From a virus (taxonomy: Duplodnaviria > Heunggongvirae > Uroviricota > Caudoviricetes), in the IMG/VR virus record IMGVR_UViG_2908567220_000002, positions 1 through 64,000 of that record: a DNA stretch of 64,000 nt; one strand, given 5' to 3'. Below the pieces are notes generated by a model. The model saw only the letters and a program-made list of their open reading frames with translations. It made no database searches and was not told the origin of the DNA. Every line of letters starts with the position of its first letter. Position 1 is the first letter of the stretch. A program made the position numbers and the translations under genes. Below, piece after piece: positions 11,282-27,456 of the stretch.

Positions 11282-12702
11282 GTGTTTCTCGCTGTGAAGG
11301 AAAGCGGCATGAACGCCGGATGGACGGGAGAGACCGCCTGTACCAGTTCGTCCGCACGCGAGGCGTCCTGATACAGCCGGTTTGCCAGCGCCAGCGACGG
11401 CTGCGGTGAGCGGCTGGTCACCTTCATCACGTCCTGTTGTGACAGATAATTCGTCTGCCAGTGGGTGACAAACTGCGTGTACTGCGCATTCAGCGCGTCA
11501 TAACTGTCGTCATCCGTACGGTCAGCCAGTAACAGCAGGACGGTTTCCGTCACCGTGCGGGCCTTCCGCATCACCAACACCGCGTCGTCGTGACCACGGG
11601 GGGAATACTGCATCAGCCGCCACAGCATCGCTCCGGCCCCCAGTGTGCGGATAAGGGCCTGCACCGCCGCAGAGATGGCATTTGCCGCCTCCCCTTCGTA
11701 ATACGTCCCGTCTTCCGCCGACGCAATCTCAGCCATGACGCGGATTTTCTCCGTGTCGCTGCCCGTGGCCTCCGCCAGAGTGATAATGACCGCCTGTATC
11801 GCGGACACGGCACCGGACACGGATGTGATATCCTCCAGCACCGCTGTCGCCGACTCCGCCGCCGACCGGTCCTGCACGGAGCAGGCCTGAATGGTTTCCA
11901 GGATACTGTCATCATCCGCATCCGTGGTGGCAAGCCACGTTGCAAGCGACGAGGCCGTGCTGCCCGACGGCGTGTCACTGCCCCGACAGTAACGCCCGTA
12001 ACTGTCAGGCGAATACAGGGATGACACCGTGCTGGTCATGCTGGTCACCGACGTCACCGCCCGCGAAAATATCGTCTTCCACGCGCTCACCGTGCTCTTT
12101 ATCGTTTTTACCGCGCCGGTGACACTGTTCATCTCACCGGTAATCGCCGCCAGCGTCACGGTGGCCGTTGTGGTCAGCGTCTGATACCACGTCTCCGATG
12201 ACGTGGAGGTTGTCCCCGTCACCAGTGAAAACGCTTTTTCCCCTGACTCAATGACGGTCAGCGTGAACGAAAACACACGCCCGGACTCCACGCCCTCTTC
12301 AATACGCAGACCTCCGTCCGGGACATACACCGTCATCTCACCCAGCGTCGGATGGACCAGCAGACCTCCGCCGGATGTTTCACAGGCCGCCACCAGGGCA
12401 TCCCGCTGACTGAACACATCCCCCGCGCTGTACACCAGACTGTCCTGTATCAGGAACCCGCGCAGTGTGAACTTCCGGGCGCTGCGCCCCAGGTCTTCCA
12501 CCCAGACCGTATCGCGGTACGGGTATTCATGCACCGCCACCCGGCGACCATATACCCCCTCTCCGGCAATCACGCCAAACGGCACGCCACAAAATGACGC
12601 CTGGTGAATATGCGACTGCCACTCCCACCCGCCGGAGGAAGACAGCCCCAGGGCGGATGACACCGCGTCTGTGATAATGCCCATCTTCTGCTCCTCACAC
12701 AT
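11278..12702 (-). CDS. Mu gp43-like protein (DNA circulation protein N-terminal domain family)
   Basis: 474 aa; N-terminal pattern FCGVPFGVIAGEG...GRRVAVHEYPYRD...VEDLGR; downstream of tape measure. Confidence 0.6.
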   Translation of the reverse strand: MCEEQKMGIITDAVSSALGLSSSGGWEWQSHIHQASFCGVPFGVIAGEGVYGRRVAVHEYPYRDTVWVEDLGRSARKFTLRGFLIQDSLVYSAGDVFSQRDALVAACETSGGGLLVHPTLGEMTVYVPDGGLRIEEGVESGRVFSFTLTVIESGEKAFSLVTGTTSTSSETWYQTLTTTATVTLAAITGEMNSVTGAVKTIKSTVSAWKTIFSRAVTSVTSMTSTVSSLYSPDSYGRYCRGSDTPSGSTASSLATWLATTDADDDSILETIQACSVQDRSAAESATAVLEDITSVSGAVSAIQAVIITLAEATGSDTEKIRVMAEIASAEDGTYYEGEAANAISAAVQALIRTLGAGAMLWRLMQYSPRGHDDAVLVMRKARTVTETVLLLLADRTDDDSYDALNAQYTQFVTHWQTNYLSQQDVMKVTSRSPQPSLALANRLYQDASRADELVQAVSPVHPAFMPLSFTARNT

Positions 12703-22872: not shown

Positions 22873-23124
22873 TCAGTAACGCACGCTCAGAGACCTTCTC
22901 GTCCTTATCCCCAGCGCCCGCTGGAGCGTCGCGATCAGCGCCAGCAAATCAGCACTGCTGGCCTGTGAATAAGTCACGGTGCGCGTGCCGTCTCCCTGTG
23001 CATAGGAGAAACTCACGCCACGCCGCCCTGAAAGCAGCTCAATATAGGCCGCCTGAGCTTCATTCAGTGCCGCCTTCAGTTGTTCTTTTGACATTCCGGC
23101 AAACACGCCGGGGGGATTCATCAT
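22873..23124 (-). CDS. Head-tail joining protein (lambda gpW-like)
   Basis: 83 aa between terminase large subunit and portal. Confidence 0.65.
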   Translation of the reverse strand: MMNPPGVFAGMSKEQLKAALNEAQAAYIELLSGRRGVSFSYAQGDGTRTVTYSQASSADLLALIATLQRALGIRTRRSLSVRY

Positions 23125-25100
23125 CGTCTCACTCCTGCAAGCCTCATATGCAGCGGTATTTTCTTACGGGGTGTCTCCGGTGCTTTTGCGCCCGGCATAC
23201 TTAAACTGATTTTTTCTTCCGGCTGCGCGGGAGGCGGCTCCATGAATGACAGATCCTGCGCCGCCCGTTCAGCCAGACGGTTCAGTTTCAGACCGTGATG
23301 CAGCAGCCCCTTCAGGGCCGCGTAACCGTACACCATGCAGTCCAGCGCCTCATTCGCCCGTCCGGCAGACAGCTCCCAGACACGGTACACCTGCCCGCCG
23401 TTCTCCTTACGCACCAGACGCTCAGAGAGCAGCTGACTGAAATAATGCAAATCCAGAAACGACGGAAAATGGATACAGCCTGCGGCAGGCGCGCCTGCCG
23501 GATCCGGCTCAATATGGAGCCGGTGCCTGATGTCGTCCTTCGCGGAGTTCACCCCCAGAATGACGGGGCGAAAGGATTTCCGGTTGCGGGAAGAAACACT
23601 GCGCGTCGGCCAGACGGGATTACGTTTGCCGCCAGCGGCGGACTCACCTTTTGTCGCCCAGATACGACGCCCGATACGCGCCTTCGAGAACTCATACACT
23701 TTGTTGGTGTGATGACCGCCCGAGTCATGGCAGACCGCCGAGAGCGTCAGCCCGAAACCGTCAGCCCGCCGCCAGACCTGCTTCAGATACGCATCAAGGC
23801 GCTCCCACGGCTCTTCTGTTTCAAGGTCACCAAAAATCACGTCATGCGCAATCACCCAGCATTCTTCGTTCATGCCCCAGCCGAGAACGGTGATTTCGAA
23901 GCGGTCATCCTGTGTATCCACCCCGGCGGTGAGCAGGAGCACGCCATACGGCACCTCCGCCCCCCAGACCTCAACGCGGGCGATCAGCCGCTGCTCACTC
24001 ATCGCAAACTCGCCTGCATCCTCGTAAGGCTCGCCCAGCGTGGTATTGATGAATGTCTGGCGCATCAGCGGATCGTCCTTCACCCTCAGCCATTCGGCGA
24101 CCAGATTCGGCCAGGAGGCATTTGAGTGCGGGCTGTAGCCCGTCCAGATATGAAAACCGGCATGCCCCCTGAATGGTGCACCGGCACGCCATTCGCCTTT
24201 TGCCAGCATCCCGGGCAGTTCACTGTGCACAATCACACAGCCGTGGTGACGGCACAGATAGTAAGCGGTCTCCGGCAGCCCGTTACCTTCGCTGTCCTTT
24301 TCCCACTTGATGCCGTAAGGGGTGCTTTTGCTGCCCCACTCCAGCACCTGATATTCACCGCAGTGAGGACAGGGCACGAAGTAGCGGCGCTGATCGCTTT
24401 CCAGCCAGGCTTTTTCAATACGGCTCACGCCTTTCACGGTTGGCGTTGAGCCGAGAACAATCTTGCGGTTCCAGAAGGTTTCGGAACGTTTTGTTCCCAG
24501 CGCAATCTGATCCCCTTCGGACCCTGCGCCCCCTGCCGGATACCCGTCCACCTCATCAAAAAGGATGATGCGGCATGTGATACGGCGAAAACCGCCGGGG
24601 GAGTTGGCCCCGACCAGCGTGAGGTTTGCGCCGTTGGAAAAGGTTTTGCGAAGAATGGTCTGGTTGCTGTTTTTTGCCTTCGGGTCGCCGCTGATGGCTG
24701 CCAGCACCGGCGTGTCGCGCAGCATCGGGGCAATTTCGGTTTTACTGTAGTCTTCGGCATCCTCCACCCTCGGCTGAACCACCAGGATGGGGGACGGATC
24801 ATGTGCCAGGTAATAGCCCACCACATGATCAAGAATTTTCGTGTATCCCACACGGGCTGATTTCATCACCGACACATACGTGACTGACGGGTCGGTGATG
24901 GCATCCATCATGCCGTCCTGATAGGGATAGGAGCGGAATTTCCCCGTCTGGGCACTGGTCTCACGGGACAGTACAGCGAAGGTGTTGGCCCACTGACTTA
25001 AGGATAATGGAGGCGGAGGCGCAAGATAACGCGGACACGAAAGCAGCGCATCCTCAAACTGTATCTCCGTGGGTTTCGCGCCTGTCAAATGCAAGTTCAT
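23121..25100 (-). CDS. Terminase large subunit (lambda gpA family)
   Basis: 659 aa; follows the Nu1-like gene with overlap. Confidence 0.8.
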   Translation of the reverse strand: MNLHLTGAKPTEIQFEDALLSCPRYLAPPPPLSLSQWANTFAVLSRETSAQTGKFRSYPYQDGMMDAITDPSVTYVSVMKSARVGYTKILDHVVGYYLAHDPSPILVVQPRVEDAEDYSKTEIAPMLRDTPVLAAISGDPKAKNSNQTILRKTFSNGANLTLVGANSPGGFRRITCRIILFDEVDGYPAGGAGSEGDQIALGTKRSETFWNRKIVLGSTPTVKGVSRIEKAWLESDQRRYFVPCPHCGEYQVLEWGSKSTPYGIKWEKDSEGNGLPETAYYLCRHHGCVIVHSELPGMLAKGEWRAGAPFRGHAGFHIWTGYSPHSNASWPNLVAEWLRVKDDPLMRQTFINTTLGEPYEDAGEFAMSEQRLIARVEVWGAEVPYGVLLLTAGVDTQDDRFEITVLGWGMNEECWVIAHDVIFGDLETEEPWERLDAYLKQVWRRADGFGLTLSAVCHDSGGHHTNKVYEFSKARIGRRIWATKGESAAGGKRNPVWPTRSVSSRNRKSFRPVILGVNSAKDDIRHRLHIEPDPAGAPAAGCIHFPSFLDLHYFSQLLSERLVRKENGGQVYRVWELSAGRANEALDCMVYGYAALKGLLHHGLKLNRLAERAAQDLSFMEPPPAQPEEKISLSMPGAKAPETPRKKIPLHMRLAGVRR

Positions 25101-25671
25101 TCAGCGCCTCGTAAATCAGTTCCTGCAATGCCGCCGTGAATCCCTGATCGTCTGTCATCCCCGCCAGCGCCCGCAGACGGGGACCATGTTCCGGCGCAAG
25201 GGCAACAAGGCGCGTCCTCACCCGGGTATACTCCGCCCCGACCCGCTCAATGATGGGTTTCCAGGGAAGCAGTGTTCCTTTCTTTTCGTCATACTCGAGT
25301 TTTGCCAGCAGCGCGAAGTAGTTCTCTTTCATGGTTCTGGCTTCATCGAGCGTCATCATGGCTCCGTGGCTGGCAATGAACTGTTCGACCCGTGCTTCTT
25401 TCGATACATCAGAGGAGTCATCGTACAGGGCAATGCTGTTACCTTCGTTGTTACCCGGAGTGTTACCTTCGGATGTTACCCTGTTACCTAAAGTGTTACC
25501 TTTTTGCTCATTTTTTATTCGGGTAACAGTTTTCCGGTAACGCCGGATCCGCTCGTTTGAGGCATCAACATCGATGTCCTCACCGTCCAGAACCAGCCAG
25601 CCACGGGCCTTCCACGCCGTTACCGTCTTGCGACTGACACCGTGAAGTTTTGCGAATTCCGCCTGATTCAT
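25054..25671 (-). CDS. Terminase small subunit (lambda Nu1-like)
   Basis: 205 aa; N-terminal HTH-like MNQAEFAKLHGVSRKTVTAWKARGW resembles the Nu1 N-terminus. Confidence 0.7.
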   Translation of the reverse strand: MNQAEFAKLHGVSRKTVTAWKARGWLVLDGEDIDVDASNERIRRYRKTVTRIKNEQKGNTLGNRVTSEGNTPGNNEGNSIALYDDSSDVSKEARVEQFIASHGAMMTLDEARTMKENYFALLAKLEYDEKKGTLLPWKPIIERVGAEYTRVRTRLVALAPEHGPRLRALAGMTDDQGFTAALQELIYEALNELAFDRRETHGDTV

Positions 25672-25696
25672 CTGTTACCCTCTGTTACCTGTTACC
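25438..25696. promoter_or_regulatory. Array of GTTACC/GGTAAC hexamer repeats at the terminase small-subunit start; candidate terminase recognition (cosB/R-site-like) elements
   Basis: GTTACC at 25438, 25450, 25462, 25475, 25483, 25495; inverted GGTAAC at 25522, 25536; three more at 25674, 25684, 25691 just upstream of the ATG at 25669-25671. Confidence 0.4.
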
Positions 25697-25902
25697 CAAA
25701 TTTCAAAATTTTATAGCTAGCGAAACACCGCGCTCGCGCAATGCCCGTGCAATAAGGTCTCCAGGAAGGACCCGTTACCCTGCCAGGCGACAGTGTCGAC
25801 ACCCGCTTGCGGTTTCAAAAATCTCAAGATAACGATAAATCACAATGCCATCACAAAACCCTGTGATGATTTTTTCACGACTGATGGTTTTCATATATTT
25901 CC

Positions 25903-26106
25903 TCACGTTTCATCAGACAATAACGCAACCAGATGGCAGGTCGCCTCCTTATTAAGAGGGAACACGAGCGTTTCACCTCCTGTGCGGTGGATATACAATG
26001 TCCTGCCCCCGGATTCATCTCTTTCAACATCAAGATATGAAACAACGGGGCGGCATATCGCTATGCCGCGTTCGCTAATGTGAGTTTTGTTTATGAGGTT
26101 ATTCAT
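25903..26106 (-). CDS. Hypothetical protein
   Basis: 67-aa ORF between the cos region and lysis-distal genes. Confidence 0.3.
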   Translation of the reverse strand: MNNLINKTHISERGIAICRPVVSYLDVERDESGGRTLYIHRTGGETLVFPLNKEATCHLVALLSDET

Positions 26107-26191
26107 GGGAATACTCTCCGAATTAAATACACTTCTGGAAAAGATACCACTCTGAAAAAAACTTCAGTCAGTCCCACAGGAAATAGAAGAT

Positions 26192-26383
26192 TTGAAGCGA
26201 AGAGTTGCTGAACTGGAATCGAACCATTGTTCTGCAACCAGCGCACAATTCTGTCCCAAATGCCAAAAAGCGTCTTTTCAGCTCGACAGAACTGAAAATG
26301 ATCCAACGTTTGGAGTATTAGGCCTTCAGCGGGACATTTATGTTTGCAGAGTGTGTGGTGACTCTCGCCATGAATCACGTTAA
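26192..26383 (+). CDS. Small zinc-ribbon-like protein
   Basis: 63-aa ORF with CPKC...CRVCG; opposite strand to the surrounding late operon. Confidence 0.3.
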   Translation: MKRRVAELESNHCSATSAQFCPKCQKASFQLDRTENDPTFGVLGLQRDIYVCRVCGDSRHESR

Positions 26384-26431
26384 TAAAAACGCTGCTGGCA
26401 CGTTCTTTCTTCAGGGCAGCAATGCCCTGCA

Positions 26432-27097
26432 TCACTTCGCCGTCTTTAAAGCCTGTTCAAGCGCCACACTCAGCTCCGTCTTCATGAGACGCGATGCCAT
26501 GTTGTGTGCCAGCGCCTGATAACCCAGTACCGGCGTGACCGGCAGTGCATCACCAAAACGTATCAACAGCTTTGGTGAGCGGCTTTTTTTGCGGGGAGCG
26601 CGTGTGCCATTGGGGGAGCGTTTTCTCCGCTTCCTGGTTTTTGCCACTTTTTTCGCTTTCTTACGCTGCCAGACGCCACCAACATCCTCACCATAGTTGT
26701 TCGTCACCTTACCGATGAACACATCCGGTCTGGCCTTCAGCTGTTGCAGTTTTGCCTTTGGCAGGTTGCCGTATTTGTTCAGCCGGATATTTTTCGGGTT
26801 CAGTACAGCTTTCTGCCCCTCACCGAGATAATGCAGCCCGCCCACCTCAAAGGGTTCAAGGTAAGGCACGGCGGTATCCATGATGAACACCCGACCGGTC
26901 AGATTGTCCCTTGTTGCCCCTTTTGAGCGCACCGAGTTCACGGTGAACGGCGTCGGGTTATCCAGCTTCCGGCGAAGGTTTTCTTTCTCTGCCGCTTCAA
27001 TTTTTCTCACCGTGGCAGTGATGGCGCGCGCAGTGGCAAAACGCACCTGCTTCTGCATTCCCAGAAGCTGTCTGTGAAGGTCGTTAAGGTCAGCCAT
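26432..27097 (-). CDS. Hypothetical basic protein
   Basis: ORF 26432-27112; probable start MADLNDLHRQ; lysine/arginine-rich C-terminal segment. Confidence 0.45.
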   Translation of the reverse strand: MADLNDLHRQLLGMQKQVRFATARAITATVRKIEAAEKENLRRKLDNPTPFTVNSVRSKGATRDNLTGRVFIMDTAVPYLEPFEVGGLHYLGEGQKAVLNPKNIRLNKYGNLPKAKLQQLKARPDVFIGKVTNNYGEDVGGVWQRKKAKKVAKTRKRRKRSPNGTRAPRKKSRSPKLLIRFGDALPVTPVLGYQALAHNMASRLMKTELSVALEQALKTAK

Positions 27098-27156
27098 ATT
27101 CCACCTTCTCATGCTGCATTATCGCAGCCCCTCACTGAAGGGCTGCTGTAATGCTG

Positions 27157-27456
27157 TTACTCAGTAACTACCGCACCTTCCGGTAATTTCATACCGGCAA
27201 ATACCGGACAGCCCGGATGGCGATCATCTTCTGTTGCTTCCAGCATTGACTCACCAAACCACTCCGTTGTGGCGCGACCATCAGCTGCTTTGTAGTGGAT
27301 CAAGTACTGGTTTTCGCCATCCGCATACTGCGCGCGGGCTTTAATCTCACCCCATTCATCACTGATGCGCATCTCCACCAGTTGAGACAACTCAAACTTA
27401 AACGGAGCAGCATCAGCACCAATTACAAACGGTTTGTTTTCTGTTTTTTCCATCAT
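27157..27456 (-). CDS. Hypothetical protein
   Basis: ORF 27157-27504; probable start MMEKTENK. Confidence 0.4.
   Translation of the reverse strand: MMEKTENKPFVIGADAAPFKFELSQLVEMRISDEWGEIKARAQYADGENQYLIHYKAADGRATTEWFGESMLEATEDDRHPGCPVFAGMKLPEGAVVTE

Follow-up and report, generated by a model that had tools for sequence, protein, structure and literature searches.

The 64,000-bp stretch analyzed here (herein referred to as the window) comprises positions 1 to 64,000 of the IMG/VR record IMGVR_UViG_2908567220_000002, a virus of the Caudoviricetes. It carries a dense cluster of short repeats at and within the start of terS, the gene for the small terminase subunit (TerS). These repeats most probably form the cosB part of a lambda-type cos site. 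This cosB would be of the iteron style, with octamers that are recognised by the winged helix-turn-helix (HTH) domain at the N-terminus of TerS. Support for a functional cosB, which would be bound by the cognate TerS and required for packaging, is comparative: the repeat motif and the HTH are matched in 64 of 64 classifiable loci, and both are exchanged together between related phages. The window belongs to an Escherichia coli prophage, four complete genomes being 99.8% identical over this region; E. coli DS26-1, ST2350, and C8 show this degree of identity. The closest isolated phages are Citrobacter phage phiNP and Serratia phage vB_SspM_BZS1 (herein BZS1), with TerS identity of 57-59%.

An earlier note on this DNA had counted eleven GTTACC/GGTAAC hexamers in the cluster, placed six direct copies within terS codons about 57-78, and considered the density unlikely by chance. 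A search of the window located all eleven hexamers, as well as two uncounted ones at 25619 and 25774. The density is indeed beyond chance: 13 hexamers lie within 347 bp, vs. an expectation of 0.17 derived from the remainder of the window (Poisson P ~1e-20). The whole window contains 44 hexamers vs. 22 +/- 4.7 in shuffled sequences. On the plus strand, the six direct copies start with GTTACC at 25438, 25450, 25462, 25475, 25483, and 25495 (spacings of 12, 12, 13, 8, and 12 bp) and occupy codons 58-78. Two hexamers of opposite orientation start at 25522 and 25536, and three more, at 25674, 25684, and 25691, lie at most 25 bp from the terS start codon (25671-25669, minus strand). The genes are on the minus strand, and in their orientation the motif reads GGTAAC. 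The real unit of the array is the octamer RGGTAACA, with 16 matches in the window vs. 2.2 expected; 10 of these 16 are found in 25437-25697. The 12-bp period was also called by Tandem Repeats Finder. A second, small group of octamers (6145-6744) was rejected as unrelated to the cos repeats: it corresponds to codons of a repeated S-V-T-T-F peptide. The protein concerned, of 1474 amino acids (3599-8023, minus strand), contains many repeats of ~23 residues (...FYGCTGLTA.....F.GC..VTTF...).

On the minus strand, the elements follow one another in the order cosQ-like block, cosN, I2-like flank, proximal octamers, terS start (bp 74), inverted copies (bp 204-224), and distal array (Table 1). Here and below, bp positions are counted from the first base of the predicted overhang.

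Table 1. Predicted packaging-site features and terminase genes of the window, and identity of its segments to the closest class B relative (L135/L020)
Feature	Positions in the window	Strand	Description
terL, gpA-type large terminase	23121-25100	-	659 amino acids; Pfam GpA_ATPase E 1.6e-76, GpA_nuclease E 1.5e-81
terS, small terminase	25054-25671	-	205 amino acids; phrog_57 "terminase small subunit" E 9.5e-28
Putative specificity cassette	25332-25693	-	repeats, HTH, and linker; exchanged as a unit in relatives
Distal array	25437-25501	-	six direct RGGTAACA, spacings 12, 8, 13, 12, and 12 bp; bp 244-308
Inverted octamer GGGTAACA	25521-25528	+	terS codons 49-50; bp 217-224
Second inverted hexamer CGGTAACG	25536-25541	+	incomplete octamer; terS codons 44-46
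Proximal repeat triplet	25673-25697	-	three RGGTAACA octamers, bp 48-72 from the predicted DNA end; R3-equivalent position
I2-like conserved flank and A/T-rich block CGCGGTGTTTCGCTAGCTATAAAATTTTGAAATTT	25698-25732	-	between cosN and the first repeat
cosN equivalent, predicted 12-nucleotide 5' cohesive end GCATTGCGCGAG	25733-25744	-	homology to the BZS1 end GCATTGCGCGCC
cosQ-like block GGGTCCTTCC	25764-25773	-	28-29 nucleotides left of the predicted top-strand nick
Segment compared with L135/L020	30000-26385		96-97% identity
Segment compared with L135/L020	25923-25694		92% identity, through cosQ, cosN, and I2
Segment compared with L135/L020	25693-25332		no similarity; L135/L020 has TGTCCCA repeats and a different HTH
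Segment compared with L135/L020	from 25331		86-93% identity, from TerS residue ~114 into TerL

The cos core was located by alignment to the mapped cohesive end of BZS1 and to lambda. The BZS1 record contains an annotated left cohesive end of 12 nucleotides (cosL), finishing 62 bp before the terS start codon. The ends of this phage were determined by PhageTerm and then confirmed by polymerase chain reaction and sequencing, with the product across the joined prophage ends compared with the virion DNA ends (PMC7556043). The joined ends of BZS1 read ...ATGGGTCCTTCC-N-CACGG/GCATTGCGCGCC/GCG..., where slashes delimit the cohesive end, and align with ...ACGGGTCCTTCC-N-CACGG/GCATTGCGCGAG/CGCGG... on the minus strand of the window. 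By this alignment, the DNA end of this prophage is predicted at 25744-25733, with a 5' overhang of 12 nucleotides flanked by CACGG (25749-25745) and CGCGG (25732-25728). The sequence CACGGGCATTGCGCG is kept in the same context in more than 80 loci.

Both flanks of the predicted end also correspond to lambda. A lambda-type cos has a 7-bp cosQ (GGGTCCT) some 30 bp upstream of the nick at cosN. The first 9 bp of the cosQ-like block, including the preceding C (CGGGTCCTT), are identical in lambda and the window and lie 29 and 28 nucleotides from the nick, respectively; GGGTCCyTCC is invariant in 19 diverse loci covering all specificity classes. On the other side, CGCGGTGTTTCGCTAGCTATAAAATTTT of the window aligns with lambda bp 13-45 (CGCGGGTTTTCGCTATTTATGAAAATTTT), and this segment is conserved across classes. 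Its general form, CGCGG(G/T)(T/G)TTTCGCTA..TAT.AAAATTTT, corresponds to the lambda segment named I2 by the Feiss laboratory. The I2-like block may bend DNA or bind integration host factor (IHF); a comparison of its A/T-rich part with the IHF consensus by eye was unconvincing, and no claim is drawn from it. From about bp 48 onward, the window diverges entirely from lambda. Judged by these alignments, the cos core is of the lambda type. It lies 48 bp upstream of the first repeat, in agreement with the earlier note, which had expected a cos site nearby. Several E. coli prophages (H5-H8) match the window only from ~25780 downward, so that a mosaic joint directly adjoins the cosQ-like block on its left.

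No match to this region was obtained by megablast against phage records. Relatives were therefore gathered via the TerS protein and via the cos core. A search for CACGGGCATTGCGCG in viral contigs yielded more than 120 loci, 81 of them with conserved flanks; together with the TerS-based loci, 80 distinct cos-terS regions were obtained. All regions share the core GGGTCCyTCC - ~19 bp - CACGGGCATTGCGCGCCGCG - ~10 bp - cyAGCTAyaAAxTTTTgAAATTT, and in every case a short repeat specific to the class follows it, starting at one and the same column of the alignment. The logo of the octamer is RGGTAACA for class A, to which the window belongs, and RTGTCCCA for class B, which has TGTCCCA in place of GGTAACA. 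No cultured phages with a class B TerS were found. Class A loci have a median of 9 copies, and class B loci a median of 8. The spacing in related phages, a check proposed in the earlier note, proved regular in coding and non-coding arrays alike, with a mode of 12 bp for class A and of 12-13 bp for class B.

Four layouts were distinguished among these loci. In layout A1 (the window, BZS1, and phiNP), the proximal copies are at bp 48, 55, and 67, the start codon is at bp 74-76, the inverted copy is at ~219, and the distal array, at 245-310, lies inside terS. The distal array is non-coding in the other three. Layout A2 (L052, L091, and others) has proximal copies at 47 and 54, inverted copies at 123 and 135, a distal array at 152-201, and a start codon at 196-210. 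The Tatumella loci (L007 and L019) have a proximal triplet at 49-68, an inverted copy at 210, a distal array at 237-294, and a start codon at 302. Class B loci (L030 and others) have proximal copies at 46 and 53, inverted copies at 117 and 130, a distal array at 145-187, and a start codon at 193. The proximal copies stay at bp 46-68 in nearly all loci, whereas the true start codon lies anywhere between about bp 56 and bp 302. Every class A locus has the proximal triplet in one alignment column, with the class-specific motif as its substitute in other classes. Nearly all class A loci of the in-gene layout retain the inverted octamer near +219; its counterparts in A2 and class B are non-coding inverted copies in the equivalent position.

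E. coli prophages (L001 from E. coli EC12, L013-L015; proteins P0001, P0007, and P0008) differ in the number of copies in the in-gene array; this variation includes a duplicated block with inverted and direct copies (peptide KKTVTRTKNEQKGN). In six mutually divergent Erwinia-type relatives (L009 and L023-L027), terS contains a run of ten A, about 157 bp from the start codon; the normal TerS continues only in the -1 frame, and frame 0 stops at about codon 91. This run, which is not present in the terS of the window, could reflect programmed frameshifting or transcriptional slippage yielding an HTH-only and a full-length TerS, or a recurrent homopolymer error.

The repeat motif follows the N-terminus of TerS. 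This protein is modular, with at least two C-terminal types (type 1, PEHGPRL; type 2, WLNWP) and several N-terminal types. N-terminal type A (MNQxxFAKLHGVSRKT...) was found with GGTAAC in 32 of 32 loci and type B (...YAxHxGVDRKTI...) with TGTCCC in 32 of 32, in both cases independently of the C-terminal type. Three further motifs were each found at a single locus. L085, with another N-terminus, has GTTCGCA, of which three inverted and four direct copies lie within the gene and are translated into a different peptide; L081, again with another N-terminus, has a TCACAC repeat; and L136, with a truncated terS, has GGTTGTC in direct and inverted copies. In L136 (~11640-12000), the same cos core is followed by a terS remnant of ~55 amino acids, which is HTH-sized, and terL is not present downstream. 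This locus may represent either a decayed prophage or a satellite that carries cos together with an Rpp-like redirecting protein.

Comparison of the window with its closest class B relative, L135/L020, along the length of the latter reveals a block of unrelated sequence between segments of high identity (Table 1). By this comparison, repeats, HTH, and linker are exchanged as one cassette of roughly 360-500 bp, whose sole protein-coding content is the N-terminal part of TerS. The suggestion in the earlier note that the repeats are cosB-like terminase recognition sites is thus supported by the joint change of motif and TerS DNA-binding domain across ~80 loci and by the cassette exchange.

Three of the 13 hexamers, at 25536, 25619, and 25774, match the hexamer only, being followed by G and not A, and lack conservation in relatives. 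The second inverted hexamer (25536) is confined to the E. coli lineage; it may still be functional, given that A2 and class B usually have two inverted copies 12-13 bp apart. The hexamer at 25619 was excluded from the functional set because it is missing in many class A relatives. The one at 25774 was excluded because it is kept in class B relatives whose TerS domain differs. This copy (25774-25779, GGGTAACG) lies left of cosQ and is present in the class B loci L020 and L021 and absent from BZS1 and phiNP, so that it is probably outside the set of TerS sites. We take its position to be reminiscent of the lambda R4 site left of cosN.

The AlphaFold2 model of TerS, built from an alignment of 33 sequences, has a confident winged HTH in residues 1-47 (helix-turn-helix, beta hairpin, and third helix; predicted local distance difference test score, pLDDT, ~86), a linker predicted to be disordered in residues 48-87 (pLDDT ~32), and a helical C-terminal domain in residues 88-205 (pLDDT 56-74). 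An N-terminal winged HTH is also the fold of gpNu1-type DNA-binding domains. BLASTP alignment with the N-terminus of lambda Nu1 gave only remote similarity (E 6e-4 over 62 columns). A Pfam scan at E up to 0.01 yielded a weak HTH_28 match only and none to the profile of the gpNu1 family (Phage_Nu1), and a sequence search against PDB chains gave no meaningful match. The nearest small-domain folds found by Foldseek include MerR-, Xis-, and BldC-type regulators, none of them significant (E above 0.3). With its GpA_ATPase and GpA_nuclease domains, the terL product is a large terminase of the gpA type and is presumed to be both the cosN nickase and the packaging ATPase. In the databases, 545 homologues of TerS were found. 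NCBI and UniRef name most of them, and the TerS of the window as well, either "RNA polymerase subunit sigma-70" or "hypothetical protein"; the former name looks like a propagated misannotation.

The resemblance to regulators, together with the position of the proximal triplet, which overlaps the terS ribosome-binding region and abuts the Shine-Dalgarno sequence and the start codon, would fit repeats acting as operators that control the late or terminase operon at the level of transcription or translation, bound by TerS itself (autoregulation) or by another phage regulator. This explanation is unlikely. The register of the repeats is fixed to cosN, not to the terS start, and the HTH and linker of TerS are the sole class-specific coding sequence in the cassette. 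Moreover, a consensus scan of 25000-27200 found no promoter-like site on the gene strand; its only two matches lie on the opposite strand, upstream of cos at 25872-25999. An operator role is possible as a secondary effect and is compatible with the repeats being cosB.

With its short iterons beside an A/T-rich block, the site bears a superficial resemblance to an origin of replication. The repeats might accordingly serve replication, partition, or recombination, or be sites for a protein other than TerS, and hitch-hike with the HTH segment, since their co-variation is obtainable from physical linkage alone. We consider this quite improbable. In all classes the array follows the cosN-I2 core and begins at an identical column, phages that are otherwise 92-97% identical differ here only in a cassette coding for just the N-terminal part of TerS, and the layout parallels the genetically defined cosB of lambda and N15. 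An Rfam scan of 25000-26200 matched no RNA family.

The composition of the linker is accounted for by the repeats and not the reverse. Gly-Asn is encoded by five of the six distal copies and Arg-Val-Thr by the sixth, which is read in another frame (codons 58-78, peptide GNTLGNRVTSEGNTPGNNEGN); the inverted copies read as Arg-Tyr-Arg and Val-Thr. In the 23 distinct in-gene linkers of relatives, Gly-Asn pairs are encoded by GGT-AAC in 121 of 122 cases, with A as the following base in 119. In the remainder of terS and terL, GGT makes up 21% of Gly codons and AAC 71% of Asn codons. These sequences are related, and a binomial figure overstates their independence; the direction is unambiguous. The residues between the copies vary freely, and the hexamer is found in several frames and in both orientations. 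In Tatumella and A2 relatives, the same HTH is accompanied by a wholly non-coding array and by a linker without Gly-Asn. Codon usage thus indicates that the constraint on the array acts at the DNA level and not at the peptide level, and the non-coding layouts independently support this. That the intragenic copies are instead the DNA image of a flexible Gly-Asn-rich linker, protein-selected or neutral and homogenised by slippage, with the three upstream copies coincidental, fits the Gly-Asn reading, the 12- and 15-bp spacings (whole codons), and the slippage-like expansion and contraction of the array between E. coli prophages (TerS of 201-251 amino acids), but it is largely refuted and has hardly any probability left, given this codon choice, the copies that are inverted, out of frame, or upstream of the start codon, the relatives that keep HTH and repeats outside the gene, and the 12-13 bp pitch shared by the non-coding class B arrays.

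Several points weigh against the assignment of the repeats to cosB. Among the members of this family, the ends of BZS1 only were mapped experimentally. No clear repeat array was seen in the GC-rich loci of class E. The repeats physically adjoin the segment coding for the HTH, and their co-variation could partly come from linkage and not from recognition; the tight boundaries of the cassette make linkage less plausible as the sole cause. Finally, the distal array may be accessory rather than required, because copy number varies (5-13 per locus, with the above range of TerS lengths among E. coli relatives), phiNP has no inverted copy, and rR2 of N15 is non-essential.

We infer TerS binding, the roles of the sub-arrays, any bending, and the actual DNA ends of the prophage. 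The DNA-binding domains of TerS would occupy the proximal triplet, at the position equivalent to R3, and thus bound TerS would anchor the gpA-type TerL on cosN across the I2-like A/T-rich segment. TerL would then make staggered nicks at cosN to produce the predicted 12-nucleotide 5' end. The inverted and distal copies might recruit further TerS domains, forming a looped or wrapped initiation complex on the end packaged first, and packaging would proceed in the direction from terS through terL to the head genes. In this lineage, with the terS start directly after the proximal sites, the distal sites fall in codons of the disordered tether, where they are tolerated, and the Gly-Asn repeat would be forced. 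A more specific version is tentative: the 8-13 octamers, at a pitch of 12-13 bp, might form a docking track with one site per subunit, each taken by one tethered winged HTH of an oligomeric TerS, in a head-to-tail filament or on DNA wrapped around a ring. Such a track would combine cis-sites overlapping the tether codons with interchangeable cassettes of sites and DNA-binding domain on a conserved cosQ-cosN-I2 chassis.

The cos site of lambda consists of cosQ, cosN, I2, and cosB (R3-I1-R2-R1) and is served by gpNu1 and gpA; its subsite order and spacing match those of the window. The likeness includes the first TerS-type site at about bp 48, a large terminase of the gpA family, and a TerS winged HTH remotely similar to gpNu1. 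The terS start codon of lambda, at bp 191, can be compared with bp 190-210 in A2 and class B relatives. By contrast, the overhang is not lambda-like in the sense of Feiss et al., since GCATTGCGCGAG and lambda GGGCGGCGACCT are identical at 4 of 12 positions by eye. The window also lacks the "complex" cosB of lambda (R3, R2, R1, and the IHF site I1). It has ten octamers in three groups, and no IHF consensus was recognised in it by eye, a formal IHF scan not having been run. In the family as a whole, the presumed cosB has 5-13 copies of an 8-bp unit at a pitch of ~12 bp, vs. three R sequences flanking an IHF site in lambda, and most of the cosB of the window lies inside terS.

In this respect, the window resembles phage N15, whose "simple" cosB has R3 at bp 48-59, the terS start at bp 89, and, within the terS gene (bp 249-260), an inverted accessory site, rR2, that is non-essential (Feiss et al., 2015, PMC4669245). 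The window shows the same type of layout, with proximal sites at bp 48-72 and inverted copies some 150-200 bp beyond the terS start; its inverted octamer would be analogous to rR2. However, N15 has single sites and not arrays, its site sequences and TerS proteins are unrelated to those of the window, and in the window the inverted copy is succeeded by six additional direct copies, which dictate the Gly-Asn repeat. The difference between N15 and Monarch, in which all sites are non-coding (PMC4669245), parallels that between layouts A1 and A2. Two class E loci (L037 and L146) carry one GGTTGTA at about +47 from cosN, in the place of the proximal copies. Its likeness to GGTTGT, the core of R3 and rR2 in N15, may be a coincidence.

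Lambda and phage 21 have the same cosQ and cosN and differ in cosB and in the recognition helix of TerS, which is the matched-pair logic of the family analyzed here. The difference is that two large classes and three single-locus pairs of motif and HTH occur here on one core, within a compact cassette, their specificities being predicted from sequence.

Recognition sequences for packaging, composed of short repeats, are also found inside small-terminase genes in pac systems. The pac hexamers of P1 lie within pacA and flank the cleavage site, and the pac sites of P22 and SPP1 are likewise inside the small-subunit gene. These phages package by the headful mechanism with terminases of other families, whereas in the window the cut is predicted at a defined cos outside the gene. 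Another parallel is provided by BldC and phage Xis, small MerR- or Xis-type winged-helix proteins that bind arrays of direct repeats head to tail. As in TerS, the domain has ~45-50 residues, and the targets, presumed ones in the case of TerS, are direct repeats in tandem with a spacing of about one turn of the helix; however, these proteins are regulators or recombination directionality factors and not terminases, and the match of folds is the non-significant one given above.

The principle of such recognition is established; new are the architecture, the overlap of the sites with the linker of their own gene, and the natural cassette system. The searchable literature yielded no account of these repeats. 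Literature searches with the cos sequence, or with the motif and "terminase", returned only the BZS1 paper and irrelevant primer matches. That paper reports the ends and the HTH in TerS but not the repeats (PMC7556043).

The analysis provides a predicted packaging site, and hence predicted virion DNA ends, for a group of Enterobacterales prophages that is widespread and has hardly been studied. Their loci constitute a natural experiment on terminase specificity, with one cutting core, two large classes of repeat and DNA-binding domain, and three single-locus pairs. The sites are short, many-copy, and regularly spaced, unlike the lambda R sites, and the in-gene array clearly exemplifies how a low-complexity protein sequence can be dictated by the constraint on DNA-binding sites. 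Matched cassettes could act as orthogonal packaging signals for cosmid or phage-delivery vectors, and the motif could help to predict co-packaged prophages and satellites. If the docking track were true, it would offer a natural, sequence-defined substrate for studying how small terminases engage DNA, as well as a set of orthogonal packaging signals.

The segment 25924-26384, just upstream of cos, is absent from the otherwise 92-97% identical relative L135 and, by this comparison, is an insertion or moron. It contains two minus-strand open reading frames, 25903-26106 (67 amino acids) and 26103-26435 (110 amino acids), with no assigned function. A homologue of phrog_1924, "minor tail protein" (26432-27112, minus strand, 226 amino acids), is also located just upstream of cos, apart from the tail genes. 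Its conserved position was likewise remarked by the authors of the BZS1 paper for p72 of that phage (PMC7556043). The lysis cassette is located further upstream of the terminase genes.

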